The notes under the pieces: model-generated
Told to the model about the DNA's origin: nothing
What the model saw: the letters and a program-made list of their open reading frames with translations, nothing else
Database searches by the model: none
Shown: piece after piece, positions 31,267 through 40,204 of the stretch
Layout: every line of letters begins with the position of its first letter
Position numbering within the stretch: the first letter of the stretch is position 1
NCBI GenBank assembly: GCA_000165345.1
Contig: CM000430.1
Coordinates: 320,001 to 384,000 of the forward strand
Length of the DNA: 64,000 nt
Direction of reading: 5' to 3'
Translations under genes and position numbers: made by a program

Positions 31267-31566
31267 ATGTCTGTTGTATCTTATTCAAGATTTCTTGATA
31301 GTGCCATTATGGGAATATTTACTATTTGTTTGTCAGGTCTTACTCTTTATTTGTTTGGCGAATTTTGGGGACTGTGTCAGTCGCCACCTCTTTCTAAATG
31401 GAGCATTGGTAAAATCATGTCGACCTTATTTCCATTTAAAAGGACTTTTGATGTAAACCTGACTCACATATTACTCTTTTCAATTATTATTTGCTTATTA
31501 AGTTTAAGAAGTGATCAAGGTACAAACAGCTCAAAGTGTGGGCAAAAACAAAAAAGAAATGATTAG
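31267..31566 (+). CDS. Hypothetical small two-TM protein (99 aa)
   Basis: ATG verified. Two hydrophobic helices (IMGIFTICLSGLTLYLF, ILLFSIIICLLSL). No homologue recognised. It could be spurious. Confidence 0.3.
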   Translation: MSVVSYSRFLDSAIMGIFTICLSGLTLYLFGEFWGLCQSPPLSKWSIGKIMSTLFPFKRTFDVNLTHILLFSIIICLLSLRSDQGTNSSKCGQKQKRND

Positions 31567-32398
31567 CTATTATTACCCTCTTCTAAATGATTTAATATAT
31601 TTCCAGAGTTATATATTAACTACATATTTTGCTCATCATACAAGAATGTAGAACAAATCATTTTTTCAAGGCAACCCAATTATTTTATTTTAAGTGATTT
31701 AGATCATTATTTTTCACATTGCTTCCAAATTCAATTGTATAGTTGCAAAATTCTGATATTGAGTTGGCCCTGAACGTTTTGGCTTTATGCTCATCCATTA
31801 GTTGCGGTTCTTGCGACTATTGATCAATGCATCCATACATATTTATTTGTTTGCTGTTTTTGTCAACTAATCAAGGAAAAGAATGGGATATTTGATTTGT
31901 TCAGTTCGAGACGATCATACTGAAAGCAAATTAAGAAATAAATATCAAAGTATCAGTTAAATCTGATGTTTAACGATCATATAGATTACTATGGACTTGA
32001 AGTGCACTCTCACGAGCAGATAGCATTTCTAATTGTTTTTGTCATGCCTTCATTATTCGTTGAAATAACATAGAACAAATATTCAAAGCTAAGTTTAGGA
32101 TCTTTATTTTTTAACATTAAATTTAGTTGTAAAACAATATTTACAGAATTACTAGTATCCCTTAAGAATACCTCCCCAATATAGAAGGGATTAGACAGAG
32201 GAGAATAAAGCCATGTTAACATGAATTTTGGTATTGCCCTAATATTGTATTTTTTTTTTGTACTCACTAAAATTGTTTACCAATATAATTTCGGCATGCA
32301 CCGCCGGAACATGTCTTGTCGATTATTTACAAGTGGTAAACCGAATTTTTTGATTTGTTTTAATTAATTACAAAGTAGAATAAATCGAAATTTTGAAA

Positions 32399-32902
32399 AT
32401 GAACGAAAGTTCAACCCATATTCAGAGCAAAAAAATACCCCAAAATAGAATATCGGATATTCAAACAATTTTTCATTTATTTGATAAGGATAAAGATGGA
32501 AGCATTAGTGGGTCTGACTTATTTGAGACTTTCAAATCAATTGGGCTTGACATTCCTCCACAGCAAATAGATGTGCTTTTAAATGAAATAAAAGGGCGCG
32601 CAAGCACAGGTATGCAACAAGATCCAGCAATTTCTAGCTCTATTGATTGCGCAATGTTTTCTGGATTCATTAGTAGACAGCTTGACTCAGCACCTTTAAG
32701 TGAACAACTAAGGGAAACTTTTTCATTACTGGATATTAACGGAGATGGCTATATTACCCCAGAATGCTTAGCAGAAGTTTGCTCAAAGCTTGGCGTATCA
32801 CTTACTGATCAGGATGCAAGGCAATTAATGGTGCAATCAGATGGCCAAGCAAAAGCAGATTATAATAAATTTGTGAAGCTTATGCAACTTTCAAAGGGAT
32901 AA
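32399..32902 (+). CDS. EF-hand calcium-binding protein (calmodulin-like or myosin-light-chain-like)
   Basis: EF loops DKDKDGSISGSDL and DINGDGYITPECL. About 167 aa. The ORF-track start at 32393 is a TTG. The ATG is at 32399. Confidence 0.75.
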   Translation: MNESSTHIQSKKIPQNRISDIQTIFHLFDKDKDGSISGSDLFETFKSIGLDIPPQQIDVLLNEIKGRASTGMQQDPAISSSIDCAMFSGFISRQLDSAPLSEQLRETFSLLDINGDGYITPECLAEVCSKLGVSLTDQDARQLMVQSDGQAKADYNKFVKLMQLSKG

Positions 32903-33059: not shown

Positions 33060-36000
33060 ATGCTTAAGATGGATGGAACTGAAAAAATAATTAAAAAAAA
33101 CAATGCTTTGCTCATTTTATTCTTAATGATTTTTTTGATAATTGAAATTGGAATTGGAATCTATATAAAATTAGAAATGAGCAATGCACGACTTAACTAT
33201 AATATTTTGTTGAACTCTATATTGGAAAACTCTAGATCCCTTTATCTTGGTATTAATGATGGTATACTGCAACTCTATTCTTGTGAAGAAAATATTGAGC
33301 AAAAAATAAAAACTGAGATGACTAAATATTTGAATGCAATTCCAAATATTGCATATTCTTTTCCTTTTTCGTTTTGTTTAAGTAACTTTGATTTTAGAGA
33401 CATCACCAGCAATATTTATTATGATTATTTATCAATTGATGTGGATTTTTGGATAACTAATTCATTTTCAAATTTTTCTGGTATTCTTAAAAGCATTGAG
33501 AACTGTATGAATAACTCTCTATCATATGCGCTTTCACAAGAGTCTGCCTTCTTATTAGAACCTATTATAGTTTCAAAGAAACAAATGTGGGCAATTCATC
33601 AAAAAATGAGAAATTACTCAATTAATATGGCAAATGAAGAATTCAAATTCGGTCAAAACACTCTAATTTGTAATAATTCAATGATACATGATTTGGAGGG
33701 TAGTCCAAGGATCACAGGAGTTTTAATCAATGGAAGCGAATATCAGGCACCTCTATTTAAAATAGATACAAAATCTCTGGATAAAGATGTTATTAATTTT
33801 GCAATTAGCGGTGATATTAACAGCGAGGAAACTGGGATTAGTCTCGATAATATCATTGAAAATACCCGATTAGTACAAAGTAGTAAAATAAAACTAAATG
33901 GAATAAATCAAATTGTCCATGAGTCAGAAGATAATGAGTTTCCGAAACATTTAAGCGAAATTAAATTTTTAAATCAATTATTTGCTAGTCCGCAAGAAGA
34001 AAACATTTTTGTAAATATCTCGAATCCAAGAATACTAGACGTTAATGGTGTTATTAATTACAGTAATGGTTTTAAATCAGCATTTAATAGAACGATTTAC
34101 ATTCCAACTTCCTCTTTATTAAGCATTGTTGAAGTATTTTCTGAAGGTATGAAGGAGTTAGAGAGAAATATGGGCAATAATTTAGTGGGAAATATCATGC
34201 TAATCCGGGTTTTTTCGATAATAATAATTCTTATTTCTTTGGTTTTTACGGCGACTATTTTTATTCCATTGATATTGATTGAGAGTGAAAAAGGAAAGGA
34301 AATATTCTCAAATTATGGGTTTTTAATAGTAGAAAGATATAAGTATTTTTCTAGGAAATACTCCCGTGAAACTAATAGTTCTCTGGGAGAATTCTATTCA
34401 TTATTTGAGAAGCTTTTTAATGTTATTCATAAAGTTTTTGAGGGCAAAAAAAAAGAAAAAAATAAGATTACAAAAATAAATGAGACTCCAATTCTAGCTA
34501 TATCCAAAAATATTGAATTGAATATTGTCTACAAACAATTAATGGGGATATTCAGGTTTAAATTATGTTATGTTTGGAAGTTTTCTATTTTAAACTCATA
34601 CTGCCTAGCGATAATTAACAATCAACAAAGTGAATTTATTGTTATTGACAATATTAACACAAATATGAATTCAATATTGGAGAATGTCTCAAAATTGATA
34701 GATGGAGATTCATCAACGATCGAAGTAATAACTAAAATTAACAGCAAAAGTATTGATAATAATGATTACTTCAAATTATTTCTATATTACATCGTCATTT
34801 CTAATTTAGTTCACTCTATTAATTCAATAATAGACAAAAACGAAAAAATCAAACTCAAGTCTGAAAAAAGATCAATCATGTTATCAATCAATTCAGAACA
34901 AGATATATCTTCATTAAATAACTATTTAAATTTTGCAAATTTCATTAATTCATTTGACAGAAATTTCAAAGTAAGAGATTTTCGTGAATGCTTTGAGGAA
35001 TTTAATATAGATAATAATGTGCTTAGTATTCTAATTGAACGATTAAATCTAGAATTTTTGATTAAACCTAATTCTAATGAACTATTAATAGATATAACAA
35101 AAAAATATAAAAGCAATCAATTAATTAATAACTCTAGTAAAAACAATTATTTACAAAATGAAACATTGGGAAATGAATTGACATTTGTCTTGATACTGGA
35201 AAATTTTGCTCCATATCAAAATTATATTTTAGAATATGAATGCTCAAAAATGAACCTCAATTTTATCAGAACAAAATATTCAAACTTAAATCTGATTCCA
35301 TTCATTAACGTGGAAGTTCTAATTATTTTCGCCAACAAAGTATTGATCAAACAAGACGAAATAATTAGATTTGTTTCGAAAATTACTAATGAACAATCTA
35401 TTATTCGTGAAATAGTTATTTTTTGGTTGGAGAATGACGAAATTATTCTTCAAGATTTGAAGTGTCATAGTAATTCAGATAAAAAAGGCTTTGATAACTT
35501 TAAATTATCAAACTCGGTGGATAAGATGAGCTATTATATAGCCAAATCAAGTCAGAGTGCTCGCTATTTATTAGATAACAATAATTCCTTAAATACTGAG
35601 TATGTGAGCAATATTCAAAAGTTTATTAAAGCAAAAATTAGTCAACATTCATTAAAAGAACCACTTTCTCATTCAAGCATAAAAAAGTTGCTATCAAATT
35701 TTGTTCCCAAGAAAACTAGAGTAGATAGTCAGTTTTTACTATCAAATTCTCCTCTTCAAAATTTTATTGATATCATTGATAATAAAATTTATTTGCAATT
35801 ATCAAAGATTAACTTCTTTGCAAATAATTTTATTTTCGAATTAAATGATTTAAAGTCTAGTGAAAAAAACTTTGATTGCGATGAAAATAATTATTTATCA
35901 AATGAATATACAGAAATGAATAACAATGGAGTTCTAATTAAAGAATTGCAACTAAAAATATCAGTATTTTCGATGATTAGACCGTATAATTTGAAAAAAT

Positions 36001-36563
36001 ATTTCAATCGAAAATCAGAAAAATTAGATTTTGTAAATTTAGTATCATTAAATGGAGATTTGAATATCAAAGATTTAGCCAACGAACTTTTATCTATATC
36101 AGAATCTGAATTAACGTCTAGAATAAAAAATGGGATTCAAGATATTTTTCAATTGCTGTCAGTTGAGAAATTGCCAGAAAAAATCGACTTATTTATGGAT
36201 TTTTGGGAATTTATTAAGAGAAATGCTTTGATCAAAAATGGGAAATTTCTGCAGTATTATTGTCCTAAATTAGTCTTACATTGTATACTTGTATTAGAAT
36301 TTTTAATTAAAAACTCAATAGGTTTGATTGAAAATATTGTCTTTGATTCCAGCAACATATTGGCACTAATTATCAGCTTTATTTCAATTCCATTTATTAA
36401 ACCTGGAATTACATCTGACATTATATCACTTTCAAATGAGATTGTTCCAATTTATTCCAATAAACTTGCGCCTTTAGAAATCCAAATATGCAGTATTTTG
36501 GAAAAAATTTTATCCTTTACAAAGTTCTCTAATTTATTTGATGATTTGGAGGTAAGTTGGTAG
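33060..36563 (+). CDS. Large (1167 aa or more) Asn/Ile-rich membrane protein with receptor-like topology. A 3' spliced extension is possible.
   Basis: TM1 ALLILFLMIFLIIEIGIGIYI. About 340 aa of predicted extracellular domain. TM2 LVGNIMLIRVFSIIIILISLVFTATIFIPLIL. About 770 aa cytoplasmic with no motif I can name. The annotated stop TAG lies 6 nt after an in-frame GAG|GTAAGT donor at 36552. See findings. Confidence 0.55.
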   Translation: MLKMDGTEKIIKKNNALLILFLMIFLIIEIGIGIYIKLEMSNARLNYNILLNSILENSRSLYLGINDGILQLYSCEENIEQKIKTEMTKYLNAIPNIAYSFPFSFCLSNFDFRDITSNIYYDYLSIDVDFWITNSFSNFSGILKSIENCMNNSLSYALSQESAFLLEPIIVSKKQMWAIHQKMRNYSINMANEEFKFGQNTLICNNSMIHDLEGSPRITGVLINGSEYQAPLFKIDTKSLDKDVINFAISGDINSEETGISLDNIIENTRLVQSSKIKLNGINQIVHESEDNEFPKHLSEIKFLNQLFASPQEENIFVNISNPRILDVNGVINYSNGFKSAFNRTIYIPTSSLLSIVEVFSEGMKELERNMGNNLVGNIMLIRVFSIIIILISLVFTATIFIPLILIESEKGKEIFSNYGFLIVERYKYFSRKYSRETNSSLGEFYSLFEKLFNVIHKVFEGKKKEKNKITKINETPILAISKNIELNIVYKQLMGIFRFKLCYVWKFSILNSYCLAIINNQQSEFIVIDNINTNMNSILENVSKLIDGDSSTIEVITKINSKSIDNNDYFKLFLYYIVISNLVHSINSIIDKNEKIKLKSEKRSIMLSINSEQDISSLNNYLNFANFINSFDRNFKVRDFRECFEEFNIDNNVLSILIERLNLEFLIKPNSNELLIDITKKYKSNQLINNSSKNNYLQNETLGNELTFVLILENFAPYQNYILEYECSKMNLNFIRTKYSNLNLIPFINVEVLIIFANKVLIKQDEIIRFVSKITNEQSIIREIVIFWLENDEIILQDLKCHSNSDKKGFDNFKLSNSVDKMSYYIAKSSQSARYLLDNNNSLNTEYVSNIQKFIKAKISQHSLKEPLSHSSIKKLLSNFVPKKTRVDSQFLLSNSPLQNFIDIIDNKIYLQLSKINFFANNFIFELNDLKSSEKNFDCDENNYLSNEYTEMNNNGVLIKELQLKISVFSMIRPYNLKKYFNRKSEKLDFVNLVSLNGDLNIKDLANELLSISESELTSRIKNGIQDIFQLLSVEKLPEKIDLFMDFWEFIKRNALIKNGKFLQYYCPKLVLHCILVLEFLIKNSIGLIENIVFDSSNILALIISFISIPFIKPGITSDIISLSNEIVPIYSNKLAPLEIQICSILEKILSFTKFSNLFDDLEVSW

Positions 36564-37183
36564 CTTTCATAAAATTCCAAAATTAGTTATGTTCAGAAAT
36601 GTAAAATGTTAATTCTAGTAAATATTTTGTCTCTTAACGAAGAAATATCATTTGGAATTAAACATTGGTTAAACGAAAGTGTAAATAATCAGAATGGCAT
36701 GGGAGCATCTCTTATTTTTTGCGAACCAATTATCAATCATATAGTACGAGATAGTAACGTACTTTTTGTATCAATTCTTTTTAATACAAGTAAGTTAATA
36801 TTAGCTATTCCAATAATTAATTATGCTTCTAAGTTTTATTTAGCCAGACTTTGTTTCAGAAAGAATACTCTATGGCATGGGTAAAAAGGTGGATTACTCA
36901 AAAGTATTGGGAAGATCAATTTGAAGAAGCACTGAATAAACATTTTAACACAAAATTACCAATTAAAGTTAAACCATTTCCTAACGGGTCAGACCTATTC
37001 AATAACCTTACTATTCAATGGTTAAATGCTATATATCAATTTGATCAACTTTATTCTGAAAATGCATATGAAGGCAAATTCTTTGTTAAAGCGTTTACTA
37101 GAATTAGAAAAAACTTTCATGCTTGGAATGATGAATATAAAAAAAGTAAATGGGATATTTGAAATTTCGATGAATGGATGAAT

Positions 37184-38983
37184 TCAATTACTATATATTG
37201 AAGAGACTGAAAGAAGAATATATGGGATAATTTCAGTATTGTAAATTGAAGTAATCTTATCAATGTTAATCGCTAACCAACTTTCAATTTGAGGATTTGA
37301 GTTGGATATATGGAAATTCCTCAAGTCTTCAATTTCTATTAAAATTAATGATAAAAATTCATCTGTTAGGTCCAAAATAAAGGGCTCCAAAGATTTTAAT
37401 GGGCATTGCTTTATCTCATTTAAAATATTAGCAAACTCGTTTTTGAGAATCGAAAACGGTCTAATTTGATTAACTCTCATATTATTGGTTTGAATTTCAT
37501 CGCTCCAGTCAAATTCTCTTAACTCGAATGAAAAAATGCTCAGACAAAACTCGAGCATTTTTCTATAGTATTCGACCATATAATTTTCTAGAAAAGAAAT
37601 TGTTATTAACAAAATAGGTTTTGAAAATGAGAAAACATTGTAAATTTGCAAATATAAATCTTGACAAGATGAAAATGTAATTGGAACGTTATTTAAATCA
37701 AATTGAGCAACGTAGATTGTCTTTGTAGATAATGATTTTTGCGAAAAAGATTTAATTGAGCGATTACCTAGTGCCAAATTTTTATTTTCAAGATGCTTAT
37801 TATTTACCAAAGTTAGTGACTTTTTGCAAAAGCAAACAAACCAATTCATGTAGTAATTCAACCAAGAATTAGATAGCCAAGAAAAATCACATTCACTCGA
37901 AAATAGTGAATTGAATGTTGATATAACGTTTGGCAATAGCGAATTGAATAGTGTTATGGCACATTTCAAAGATGCGCAGCAATTCAATTTAGAAAGCATA
38001 TTTGATTTATTTCTATATTCAATATCAATGAATTCACTCCTAGACTTCAAAAAAATTTTTGCAAGCATAGAACTCATTATTAAATAATCAGACTCTGAGC
38101 TGATTTTGTTATACAGGCATATTTCTTCTAAAAACCCGTGTTTTGGTTTAGTTATTTCGCTATTTAGAGTTATTAATCTTCTAAGATGGCCAATAATTTC
38201 CACAGTGTTTAGCAGAGATTGTTGATCAAAATTTAGTCGAGACTTAATTGACGAGTAGAGTGAATCTTTTACCAACTCCATTTTATGTTTTGTTGTCTCA
38301 ATAAGTGTTGAAATGAAAGAGTTCTCTTCATTTTGCCAAACTTTGTTATATGAAATTGAAGCTTCTAGTAGCTTTATGGTTGATTCAAAATATTCAAGTG
38401 TGTCCAAAGCATCATCTGTCATATTTGCAGAAACAAAGCTTTCAATAAGTTTTGGTAATTCTATTAGTTCAACTATAAGTTTTAAAATATTTCTCAAAAT
38501 AGTTAGCTTCCTAAATTGAGATAGTTTTTGTAGTAATATCGATTGGCTTGAATTAGATTTCTGAGTAACTATTGAAAAAAAATGATTGATTGTTACGTTT
38601 GCTCTCTTTTCGAAACCGATGAATTTTTTTCTAATTTCTGTAACAACTTGTTTATTTCTTTTTATAAGTTTTGTTGAATTATACAATGTGGATCTTTGGA
38701 CAGAGCTTCTTAATTTTTGTAGCTCTAAATCTAGGGACCTATACTCTGATAGAAGTTTATTCGGGTATTCCGATGCCAATAATGGTAATAAGTAGCTTTG
38801 ATTGTTAGAGGTGATTTCATCTTGAAGAGCACAATTAATACTCGAATTTACTCCTTTATATGGAGAACTTTGTTTTAAATATTGAAATCTTACATCCTTC
38901 TTTGGTATTTTATCTTCATTAAAACCCCCACGCTTTAAGTTATTTTGTAATAGGGATATTAATTCAATATCATACTCATGCAT
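37184..38983 (-). CDS. Hypothetical 599-aa alpha-helical protein (possible vesicle-tethering or COG-like subunit, very tentative)
   Basis: ATG verified. N-terminal coiled-coil-like segment followed by a long helical region. No diagnostic motif. Confidence 0.45.
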   Translation of the reverse strand: MHEYDIELISLLQNNLKRGGFNEDKIPKKDVRFQYLKQSSPYKGVNSSINCALQDEITSNNQSYLLPLLASEYPNKLLSEYRSLDLELQKLRSSVQRSTLYNSTKLIKRNKQVVTEIRKKFIGFEKRANVTINHFFSIVTQKSNSSQSILLQKLSQFRKLTILRNILKLIVELIELPKLIESFVSANMTDDALDTLEYFESTIKLLEASISYNKVWQNEENSFISTLIETTKHKMELVKDSLYSSIKSRLNFDQQSLLNTVEIIGHLRRLITLNSEITKPKHGFLEEICLYNKISSESDYLIMSSMLAKIFLKSRSEFIDIEYRNKSNMLSKLNCCASLKCAITLFNSLLPNVISTFNSLFSSECDFSWLSNSWLNYYMNWFVCFCKKSLTLVNNKHLENKNLALGNRSIKSFSQKSLSTKTIYVAQFDLNNVPITFSSCQDLYLQIYNVFSFSKPILLITISFLENYMVEYYRKMLEFCLSIFSFELREFDWSDEIQTNNMRVNQIRPFSILKNEFANILNEIKQCPLKSLEPFILDLTDEFLSLILIEIEDLRNFHISNSNPQIESWLAINIDKITSIYNTEIIPYILLSVSSIYSN

Positions 38984-39061
38984 TGCTTTATTTGGGGAAA
39001 AAAAAAAAAACTGATTTATTCTACCGCTTTTCTGATAATACTTGAAAATTGGAACTTAAAT

Positions 39062-40204
39062 ATGTTTGAATTGGAAAAATTATTAGCAAGTTATAGCCAT
39101 CCAATTTTAAGAGAAAGGATAGAATATTTCGGAAGATTTCAACAGGATATTTTAGATAGTAATTACCCCAATATTGCATCATTCAACCTTTTAGAACAGG
39201 GAAATGAAACCATTTTTGACTACGATGGCTTCGTTTATAAATTATACCTTTCTTTTGCGAGTAATACAGAAGTAAACAAGAAAAACAATACATCAGAAAA
39301 CAAGGAAAATGATCTGAAGATTGTGCCATTAAAAGATATACGCAGAGAATCTTCTAAACATTTAAATTTAGTTATAGAGGTTTACAATACTCATATTAGG
39401 CAGCTTTGGAATGACGCAAAACAACTTATTGAACATTATAAGAGCATTATTAGTAATGCTATTGAAATTTATGAGTCTCACAACTTGGATAACTGTTTAA
39501 TTATTTATTTGCCGAACAATGCAATATCTGAAATATTTTCCGATTTAAATAATCGGAATGCGACAAAAAGCGCAGCTTTTGAAATGATTACCTCTTCAAT
39601 AAAAAGTTGTCTTTATTGCGGTAGCGTATTGAATACTATAAGATATATATCATTCTATTGTTTTTTGGATAACAAAACTATTTCAGAAGATATTGGTATT
39701 CAAGGTTTTTCCCTAATTTACATTACTTTACTTTCAAATAAGAAAATATATGCATTTTACCCCGATTCAAAAAATAAATATAAATTTGCAATACTAGCAA
39801 TCGAGTTTTTAGATAAATTAATTAAAAGTAATATATTAACTAGCAACTTTATTCAAGAATTATCAATTGCAATAAACCAAAGTGAGATTTCTATTTTTAA
39901 AAATATGCTTGATTCGAATGCAATATCAATATCATATTCAAGCTCGCTGCCAAAAAGTGCCAATGAAATTCTTTATAATCAAAAATCAGACAGTTCATCT
40001 GGTGAGAAATCGTTTATGATATTTTGCATCCCGATTTCTTGGTTAGACTCAACAGACGACTATATCAAATTATACTTCGCTGGGCTCATTACGTTGATAA
40101 ATAACATATTGCTGCAAATGATCCCACAGTGCAAAAGCACGATTAGATGTGGATTAAGGAAATTTGTGCTCGAATTAACTAGCCAGGAATGCGAGGGTTG
40201 CTAA
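39062..40204 (+). CDS. Hypothetical protein (about 380 aa)
   Basis: Open frame. An upstream in-frame ATG at 38978 would overlap the divergent gene start at 38983, so the ATG at 39062 is preferred. No family recognised. Confidence 0.4.
   Translation: MFELEKLLASYSHPILRERIEYFGRFQQDILDSNYPNIASFNLLEQGNETIFDYDGFVYKLYLSFASNTEVNKKNNTSENKENDLKIVPLKDIRRESSKHLNLVIEVYNTHIRQLWNDAKQLIEHYKSIISNAIEIYESHNLDNCLIIYLPNNAISEIFSDLNNRNATKSAAFEMITSSIKSCLYCGSVLNTIRYISFYCFLDNKTISEDIGIQGFSLIYITLLSNKKIYAFYPDSKNKYKFAILAIEFLDKLIKSNILTSNFIQELSIAINQSEISIFKNMLDSNAISISYSSSLPKSANEILYNQKSDSSSGEKSFMIFCIPISWLDSTDDYIKLYFAGLITLINNILLQMIPQCKSTIRCGLRKFVLELTSQECEGC

Follow-up and report, generated by a model that had tools for sequence, protein, structure and literature searches.

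Where does the gene that begins at position 33060 of this window end, and what kind of protein does it encode? The window is a stretch of 64,000 nucleotides (nt) of Cryptosporidium parvum chromosome 2 (GenBank assembly GCA_000165345.1, contig CM000430.1, positions 320,001 to 384,000 of the forward strand), AT-rich with about 30% G+C. The open reading frame (ORF) 33060–36563, on the + strand, encodes 1167 amino acids (aa); its coordinates and product, as given in a preliminary description, were confirmed against the sequence and the ORF list. It corresponds to cgd2_1710 and is an exact match to the C. parvum Iowa II protein EAK88805.1/XP_626390.1, annotated as "hypothetical protein". Judging from sequence comparison, cgd2_1710 is probably a three-exon gene for a genus-specific, two-pass, receptor-like membrane protein with a C-terminal domain that resembles class I cyclic nucleotide phosphodiesterases (PDEs) and would be inactive.

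Exon structure of cgd2_1710

Splicing of 33060–36551, 36597–36789 and 36834–37162 produced a coding sequence of 4014 nt that translates into 1337 aa without internal stops. Exon 1 (33060–36551) encodes aa 1–1164 and ends in phase 0 at GAG|GT. Intron 1 (36552–36596, 45 nt, phase 0) runs from GTAAGT to CAG and contains two in-frame stops. Exon 2 (36597–36789, 193 nt) supplies aa 1165–1228 and the first base of codon 1229. Intron 2 (36790–36833, 44 nt, phase 1) runs from GTAAGT to AAG, and exon 3 (36834–37162, 329 nt), which is aromatic-rich, supplies aa 1229–1337 and a TGA stop. Both introns combine a GT donor with an AG acceptor in compatible phases, and the spliced frame is open.

The preliminary description had proposed these sites as a possible extension of the ORF. 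Its first donor (GAG|GTAAGT, with the G at 36552) and first acceptor (CAG ending at 36596, leading into exon 2 from 36597, in frame with ORF 36606–36884, KCKMLILVN...) were both recovered, as were the second donor (ACAA|GTAAGT at 36790, phase 1) and the AAG acceptor at 36833, phase-compatible with the ORF ending at 37162. Two numbers needed correction. The donor lies 9 nt, not six, from the TAG, as read-through adds three codons (V S W) before the stop at 36561–36563. The spliced 3' extension, found in nine other species as well, adds 170 aa rather than about 150.

The hexamer GTAAGT occurs in the window at chance level (26 observed, 23.5 expected), so the donors alone are no proof, and the weight comes from conservation across species and from the match to annotated proteins. 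The 1337-aa translation was letter-for-letter identical to QOY43062.1 (CPATCC_0029110, C. parvum IOWA-ATCC), from which intron 1 is absent, and to WRK30960.1 (cpbgf_2001710). The gene structure is thus already known from the newer C. parvum annotations. All introns (100%) in the IOWA-ATCC annotation are described as supported by RNA sequencing (RNA-seq) (Baptista et al. 2022, PMC8744675). The two introns of cgd2_1710 do not differ from the short spliceosomal introns of that re-annotation: they have GTAAGT donors, AG acceptors and, across species, lengths of 42–67 nt. They represent an ordinary case whose sole peculiarity is to have been missed by older or automated annotations.

We compared the 3' end across the genus using orthologous loci from seven species and from C. 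andersoni; the 3' ends were rebuilt and eight species were tabulated. C. felis was considered only through its annotated protein, from which intron 1 is absent and in which intron 2 is entered. At the DNA level, the position, phase and GT..AG ends of both introns were kept in ten species, C. andersoni included. Intron lengths varied freely, whereas exon lengths differed only in multiples of three. Intron 1 measured 45, 45, 45, 45, 42, 43, 48 and 46 nt in the tabulated species and 57 nt in C. andersoni. It takes the form GT[AGT]AGT...AG directly behind a conserved F-[DS]-x-[FL]-[EK] codon stretch, and it contained an in-frame stop in all eight tabulated species. Intron 2 measured 44, 44, 44, 43, 43, 45, 45 and 46 nt in the tabulated species and about 67 nt in C. 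andersoni. Its donor was GTAAGT in the same codon phase (one base into the codon) in nine intestinal-clade genomes and GTATGT in C. andersoni. Retention of intron 2 would shift the frame in six of the eight tabulated species and bring a stop in C. xiaoi; open read-through was seen only in C. canis. In the tabulated species, exon 2 had 187, 190 or 193 nt and exon 3 had 317 or 329 nt, a difference of 12 nt.

Amino-acid conservation crossed both exon junctions without interruption, and every species, C. andersoni and C. muris among them, has a protein ending in ...WDI. When C. parvum was compared with C. meleagridis, 16 of 36 changed codons were synonymous in the spliced frame, as opposed to 10 of 37 and 4 of 33 in the other frames. 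We therefore regard cgd2_1710 as almost certainly a single three-exon gene encoding one protein of 1337 aa.

Two observations count against this structure. The RNA-seq support for the two cgd2_1710 introns is the statement of the annotation paper (PMC8744675) and is indirect. In addition, public annotations are at odds over the 3' end in at least six ways, and several of them split or truncate the gene. The models of the old Iowa II annotation, C. meleagridis, the chipmunk genotype and C. ryanae end at the read-through TAG. A separate gene of 160–170 aa is split off in C. tyzzeri (CTYZ_00002411/12), one C. hominis assembly (CHM_2g1715) and C. sp. 43IA8 (CPCDC_2g1715). The C. ubiquitum annotation uses another intron 1 acceptor, which skips 16 conserved codons, while that of C. 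canis reads through intron 2 and those of C. xiaoi and C. felis enter intron 2 and terminate there.

The split models correspond to a reading with two genes, in which TAG 36563 closes the 1167-aa ORF and a second, independent protein of 170 aa starts at ATG 36606, its gene having intron 2 only. That ATG is in frame, several pipelines call such a 160–170-aa product, and false fusion of neighbouring genes by RNA-seq is possible in a compact genome (PMC8744675). However, only 42 nt separate the stop from this ATG, and the gap behaves like an intron in ten species, with GT..AG ends, drifting length and in-frame stops. The Met at 36606 is missing in C. ubiquitum, where exon 2 starts with KCKKLIIL and holds no Met, and the three codons ahead of it (K/E-C-K) are kept as coding directly 3' of the conserved AG. 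Moreover, the PDE-like alignment described below spans the junction, and a single protein is annotated in C. muris, C. andersoni, C. canis and C. parvum IOWA-ATCC. Two separate genes are, in our estimation, extremely unlikely. Hardly more probable is the use of an intron 2 acceptor at 36863 (AAAG|AA), 30 nt further downstream, as in the C. hominis UKH1 annotation (...LFNT|KYSMAW...). This would give a 74-nt intron and a protein shorter by 10 aa. The site is phase-compatible, is so annotated in OLQ19106.1 and PPS95174.1, and has an AG at the equivalent place in several species. Yet the 30 nt that it removes encode a peptide conserved across the genus (ILFSQTLFQKE in C. parvum; I/V-L/I-F/Y-S/G-Q/P-x-x-F-x-K/S-x overall) with synonymous differences between species, which favours the acceptor at 36833. 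The latter is also the first AG behind an A/T-rich putative branch region and is the site annotated in CpIA, BGF, HLJ and C. ubiquitum.

With the single three-exon gene as the reference, the widely used 1167-aa model of cgd2_1710 is truncated at its 3' end, and the 3' ends of the C. hominis, C. tyzzeri, C. meleagridis, C. ubiquitum, C. canis, C. xiaoi, C. ryanae and C. felis models are truncated, split or mis-spliced. Conservation across ten genomes offers one consistent correction, of a gene model that is in itself known and ordinary.

The C-terminal region and class I phosphodiesterases

We assessed the C-terminus with profiles built from its orthologues. Against 177,635 PDB sequences, the eight-species profile matched PDE9A alone (E = 0.036; the next match had E = 9). 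Once C. felis and C. andersoni were added, PDE9A was the best match of the ten-species profile (E = 0.0016). Of 29 PDB matches at E < 10, 27 were catalytic domains of PDE9A, PDE5 and PDE4 (4A, 4B, 4C); all of these aligned in one register with a single segment that includes the exon 1/2 junction. The best matches of this profile were to the human PDE9A, PDE5 and PDE4 catalytic domains (PDB 3n3z, 2chm and 1xlx, E = 0.0016–0.5), in which the PG, N and LE residues have the same spacing as in cgd2_1710. Identity to these domains was about 17–20% (hhalign), their metal ligands are absent in cgd2_1710, and outside about 120 residues the similarity was statistically undetectable. The part of the putative domain encoded by exon 1 (aa ~1020–1164, 36117–36551) was delimited by the HMMER profile search against PDB, by hhalign and by a residue table. 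In HMMER, the PDE9A alignment spanned the exon 1/2 junction and continued for about 49 residues into exon 2. From the HD-equivalent helix to the C-terminus, the protein has about 242 aa, compared to about 229 aa in PDE9A. Given this alignment and the matching length, a protein that ended at 36563 would break off halfway through the domain.

Profile–profile comparison yielded a similar picture. Against 91 PDE9-like fragments, hhalign returned P = 1.9e-4 with a score of 36.9, as opposed to 19.3 for the reversed alignment and a maximum of 23.0 in 60 column shuffles. Against 120 full PF00233 domains, P was 3.6e-4, and a low-stringency alignment ran collinearly over the whole domain, from the "YHN..H" helix through to the final one. 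These 120 real proteins were fetched with a consensus-like bait used solely for this purpose, an earlier PDE9A-fragment bait having returned exon-sized fragments only. The exon 1 core alone gave P = 8.4e-5 against PDEs. In Pfam, PDEase_I (PF00233) came up for one of eight orthologues (E = 0.023).

Several PDE motifs have recognizable, degenerate counterparts. In exon 1, LVLH is found at aa 1071–1074, and SIPFIKPG (aa 1109–1116, 36384–36407) occupies the position of HD..HPG. The segment YSNKLAPLEIQIC (36453–36491) stands where PDEs have YND.S.LENHH. By eye, the degenerate signature reads ...ALIISFISIPFIKPGITSDIISLSNEIVPIYSNKLAPLEIQIC..., to be compared with the PDE pattern ...AA..HD..HPG..N.F......S.LA..YND.SVLENHH. 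In exon 2, the segment ILSLNEE (36624–36644) was aligned with the PDE "LATDM..H" segment, with ILSLNEEIS opposite ILATDMARH.

In class I PDEs, the HD dyad and the histidines bind two metals. According to the residue table, the position of the HD dyad is [IVSL]P, that of the HPG histidine is K/R, and the two His after LEN are replaced by Q/Y/D and I/V/M/T, in each case in 10 of 10 species. In the HMMER profile alignment, L/I/T/A takes the place of the "ATDM" Asp in all ten. The position of the distal Asp was aligned with T/L (hhalign against PF00233), with low alignment confidence. One His (in LVLH) and the structural residues G, N and E did not vary; in the PG pair, C. felis has Met for Pro. 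Since the metal-site residues are replaced in every species, the domain is most likely an inactive pseudo-enzyme, and most likely has been so since before the radiation of the genus. Both its score and its catalytic residues place cgd2_1710 outside PF00233, and it is best called a PDE-derived pseudo-enzyme, not a PDE. The preliminary description had seen no catalytic motif in the protein, and none was found in its C-terminus; the region is not featureless, though, and retains a degenerate class I PDE-like core in which the catalytic residues have been replaced.

Descent of the C-terminus from a strongly diverged class I PDE appears likely to us, but several results weigh against it. The gathering score of PF00233 was reached by no member, the single orthologue match at E = 0.023 being the best. 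The C. parvum sequence alone, searched as ORF pieces and as the spliced C-terminus, matched nothing in Pfam, and PF00233 not even at E ≤ 10. A phmmer search of PDB with the single C. parvum C-terminus found no match. The significant signal was limited to about 55–120 residues around the HD-equivalent helix. Taken by themselves, exons 2 and 3 were not significant against PDEs (P = 0.2–0.36, hhalign), and the proposal that the extension completes a PDE fold thus rests on collinearity and domain length. Structure prediction, suggested in the preliminary description for the extracellular and C-terminal parts, gave confidence values (predicted local distance difference test, pLDDT) of 36 and 39, respectively. 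For the C-terminal 400 aa (9-row alignment), the AlphaFold2 model was all-helical with 15 helices, where class I PDEs have a compact all-alpha fold of about 16, but this was the model with a pLDDT of 39; Foldseek with it against PDB found no match below E = 4, and PDE3B appeared at E = 8.4. With models this poor, a PDE-like fold could not be confirmed.

These results leave room for a reading in which the gene structure is right and the resemblance to PDEs is due to chance or composition, the C-terminus being an orphan all-helical domain. The modest E-values (1.6e-3 at best), the Pfam threshold that was not reached, the restriction of the signal to one segment, the loss of all catalytic residues but one His and the uninformative AlphaFold2 model are all compatible with it, and the I/N/L/S/K-rich composition of the protein favours spurious matches. 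Chance would not, however, easily make one family supply 27 of 29 PDB matches in the same register, nor improve the E-value more than 20-fold when two more divergent species joined the profile. Two independent methods and two independent PDE alignments concurred, and column shuffles and the reversed alignment scored far lower. The retained PG, N and LE are non-catalytic structural residues at the right spacing, and the domain length fits. A fortuitous resemblance is therefore unlikely, if well worth keeping in mind, and PDE ancestry is the reading that we carry forward.

Among known proteins, the nearest are the membrane-associated apicomplexan class I PDEs, namely CpPDE1–3, Plasmodium PDEalpha-delta and the Toxoplasma PDEs. 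As in these, the domain of cgd2_1710 is C-terminal, behind N-terminal transmembrane helices, and the stretch from the HD helix to the "LATDM" helix could be aligned in register and has the right length. Unlike these, it scores below the Pfam threshold, has the HD dyad and other catalytic His replaced in all species, is preceded by an unassigned region of about 600 aa and has no orthologue outside Cryptosporidium. Plasmodium PDEs have a multi-pass N-terminus, whereas cgd2_1710 has only two transmembrane helices around a large ectodomain. A 2023 review of apicomplexan PDEs (PMC10865986) counts three C. parvum PDEs, CpPDE1–3 (cgd3_2320, cgd6_500 and cgd6_4020), and does not mention cgd2_1710. Our literature search found cgd2_1710, CPATCC_0029110 and cpbgf_2001710 named in the main text of no paper, and every source labels the product as hypothetical. 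The PDE-like domain thus seems to be a new, modest addition at the level of a hypothesis.

Topology, middle region and possible function

The receptor-like topology with two transmembrane segments, noted in the preliminary description, was borne out by two strongly hydrophobic segments (aa 16–34 and 387–407, Kyte–Doolittle) that were conserved in all orthologues. The first putative helix (33105–33161) reaches a score of 2.9 in a 19-residue window and has a Lys-rich N-terminus ahead of it. The second (34218–34280; aa 387–405 in the hydropathy scan) is followed by a basic juxtamembrane stretch, E.EK.K..F....RYK.F..KY. The Lys-rich N-terminus and the basic stretch behind the second helix suggest that both termini are inside and the loop of about 350 aa is outside. 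In C. ubiquitum, the start of cubi_00550 is placed after the first helix; an in-frame upstream ATG (locus position 2899) restores it.

The predicted extracytoplasmic loop (aa 35–386, 33162–34217) has four invariant Cys (75, 106, 149 and 204) and eight NxS/T sites, and is probably glycosylated. Its conserved blocks are NYNIL.NS, SFPFSFC, QES.FL..PII.SKKQ.W.IHQ, EG.P..TGV..N.S.YQAPLF and RTIY.PTS. No Cache, CHASE or PBP-type signature was recognized in the ectodomain by the AlphaFold2 model or the PDB profile search, and no Pfam assignment was obtained. In the model of aa 1–418 (8-row alignment, pLDDT 36), only the transmembrane helices exceeded 50. The DsbG N-terminal domain was a lone marginal PDB profile match (E = 0.029); it covered a poorly conserved, low-complexity part and was rejected.

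Behind the second helix, the presumed cytoplasmic part comprises about 930 aa. Its middle region (aa 408–~1019, 34281–36116) is conserved within the genus and has no detectable relatives. Relatives of the protein were found in Cryptosporidium only, both by a word-indexed search and by an exhaustive HMMER scan that covered 1.84 billion representative proteins. They occur throughout the genus, as far as the gastric C. andersoni and C. muris, which the exhaustive scan added together with C. felis.

The topology, with a short cytoplasmic N-terminus, a first helix, an ectodomain of about 350 aa, a second helix and a long cytoplasmic output, is that of two-transmembrane sensors such as bacterial and eukaryotic sensor histidine kinases and receptor-type cyclases. 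Unlike these, cgd2_1710 has no detectable HisKA, HATPase_c or class III cyclase domain. No Pfam family threshold was reached in any of nine species tested, which agrees with the preliminary description in that no catalytic motif was seen, and a histidine kinase or cyclase is unsupported. A related reading takes the cytoplasmic part for a degenerate two-component relay, with a histidine kinase-like ATPase and a receiver-like domain ahead of the PDE-like domain, as in a hybrid kinase fused to a RegA-type receiver-PDE. It draws on beta-alpha patterns seen only by eye in C. parvum (FVLILEN...VLIIFANK...IVIFWLEND, 34700–35460 of the window, aa ~550–800). In C. andersoni (aa ~640–960), the corresponding patterns are FLVEN...LIIFVDSRF...VIIVWLDTS, with an Asp at the would-be phospho-acceptor position; the sensor-like topology is consistent with such a relay. 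PDB, however, is rich in receiver and kinase domains, and the ten-species profile of aa 411–1000 had no match there at E ≤ 10, as was also the case for a five-species profile, so the visual impression is unsupported. The same nine species gave no Pfam match to such domains, and the conserved H-box, N/G-boxes and DD...D...K receiver residues are absent. We consider a relay very unlikely.

If cgd2_1710 is instead the receptor-like pseudo-enzyme proposed above, removal of the two very short spliceosomal introns would yield a two-pass membrane protein of 1337 aa whose ectodomain, facing the outside or a lumen, may sense some cue. The last ~320 aa, encoded across all three exons, would form the diverged class I PDE-like domain; the 3' exons would complete it, and without them the fold would be cut in half. 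The dead domain could serve as a binding module, for a cyclic nucleotide, another ligand or a docking protein, and not as a catalyst. It may thereby couple ectodomain sensing to the cyclic adenosine and guanosine monophosphate (cAMP/cGMP) machinery of the parasite. Such a non-catalytic signalling role is something we can only infer, and it is doubtful. More speculative still, and improbable as it stands, is the idea of a fossil receptor-type cyclic nucleotide signalling protein kept only by Cryptosporidium. Its ectodomain would respond to a host or gut cue, and its dead PDE would still bind cAMP or cGMP, or dock an active PDE, cyclase or kinase, which would make the protein a membrane sensor of cyclic nucleotides or a scaffold. 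Its entire cytoplasmic part might even descend from a RegA-like hybrid kinase/receiver-PDE relay; an apicomplexan would then have kept a trace of two-component signalling.

Should the proposed nature of the protein hold, cgd2_1710 would be a fourth PDE-derived protein in Cryptosporidium, catalytically dead and genus-specific, with a large surface-exposed loop. It would bear on cyclic nucleotide signalling, a current drug-target area in Cryptosporidium, as well as on the evolution of pseudo-enzymes and the search for parasite-specific surface antigens.

Flanking genes

cgd2_1710 is flanked by an EF-hand protein upstream and a convergent hypothetical gene of 599 aa downstream, and this synteny was found in every Cryptosporidium genome fetched. 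One of the orthologous loci, a contig from Logan SRR31860986, carries a full syntenic orthologue with about 50% identity to C. parvum, intermediate between C. ubiquitum and C. canis. The coding sequence of exon 3, with its stop at 37162, lies only 21 nt (37163–37183) away from that of the convergent gene, whose stop is at 37184. The 3' untranslated regions of both genes must therefore overlap, which makes unstranded RNA-seq harder to interpret.

The convergent minus-strand gene (37184–38983) is divergent from the + strand ORF 38978–40204, the first ATG of which (38978) shares 6 nt with its start codon. At the orthologous loci, the product of this ORF is called as 372–380 aa with a start about 70 nt further downstream, and the true start is thus probably an internal ATG (MFELEKLL...). 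Further upstream of cgd2_1710, an ORF of 99 aa (31267–31566) has two hydrophobic stretches and no Pfam family; a gene is called at the same place in five other species. The EF-hand protein (32393–32902) has two EF-hand pairs (Pfam E = 8e-18) and is listed as an ORF from a TTG start. Its orthologues are called as 167–168 aa, and its start is probably the ATG two codons downstream (MNESSTH...).

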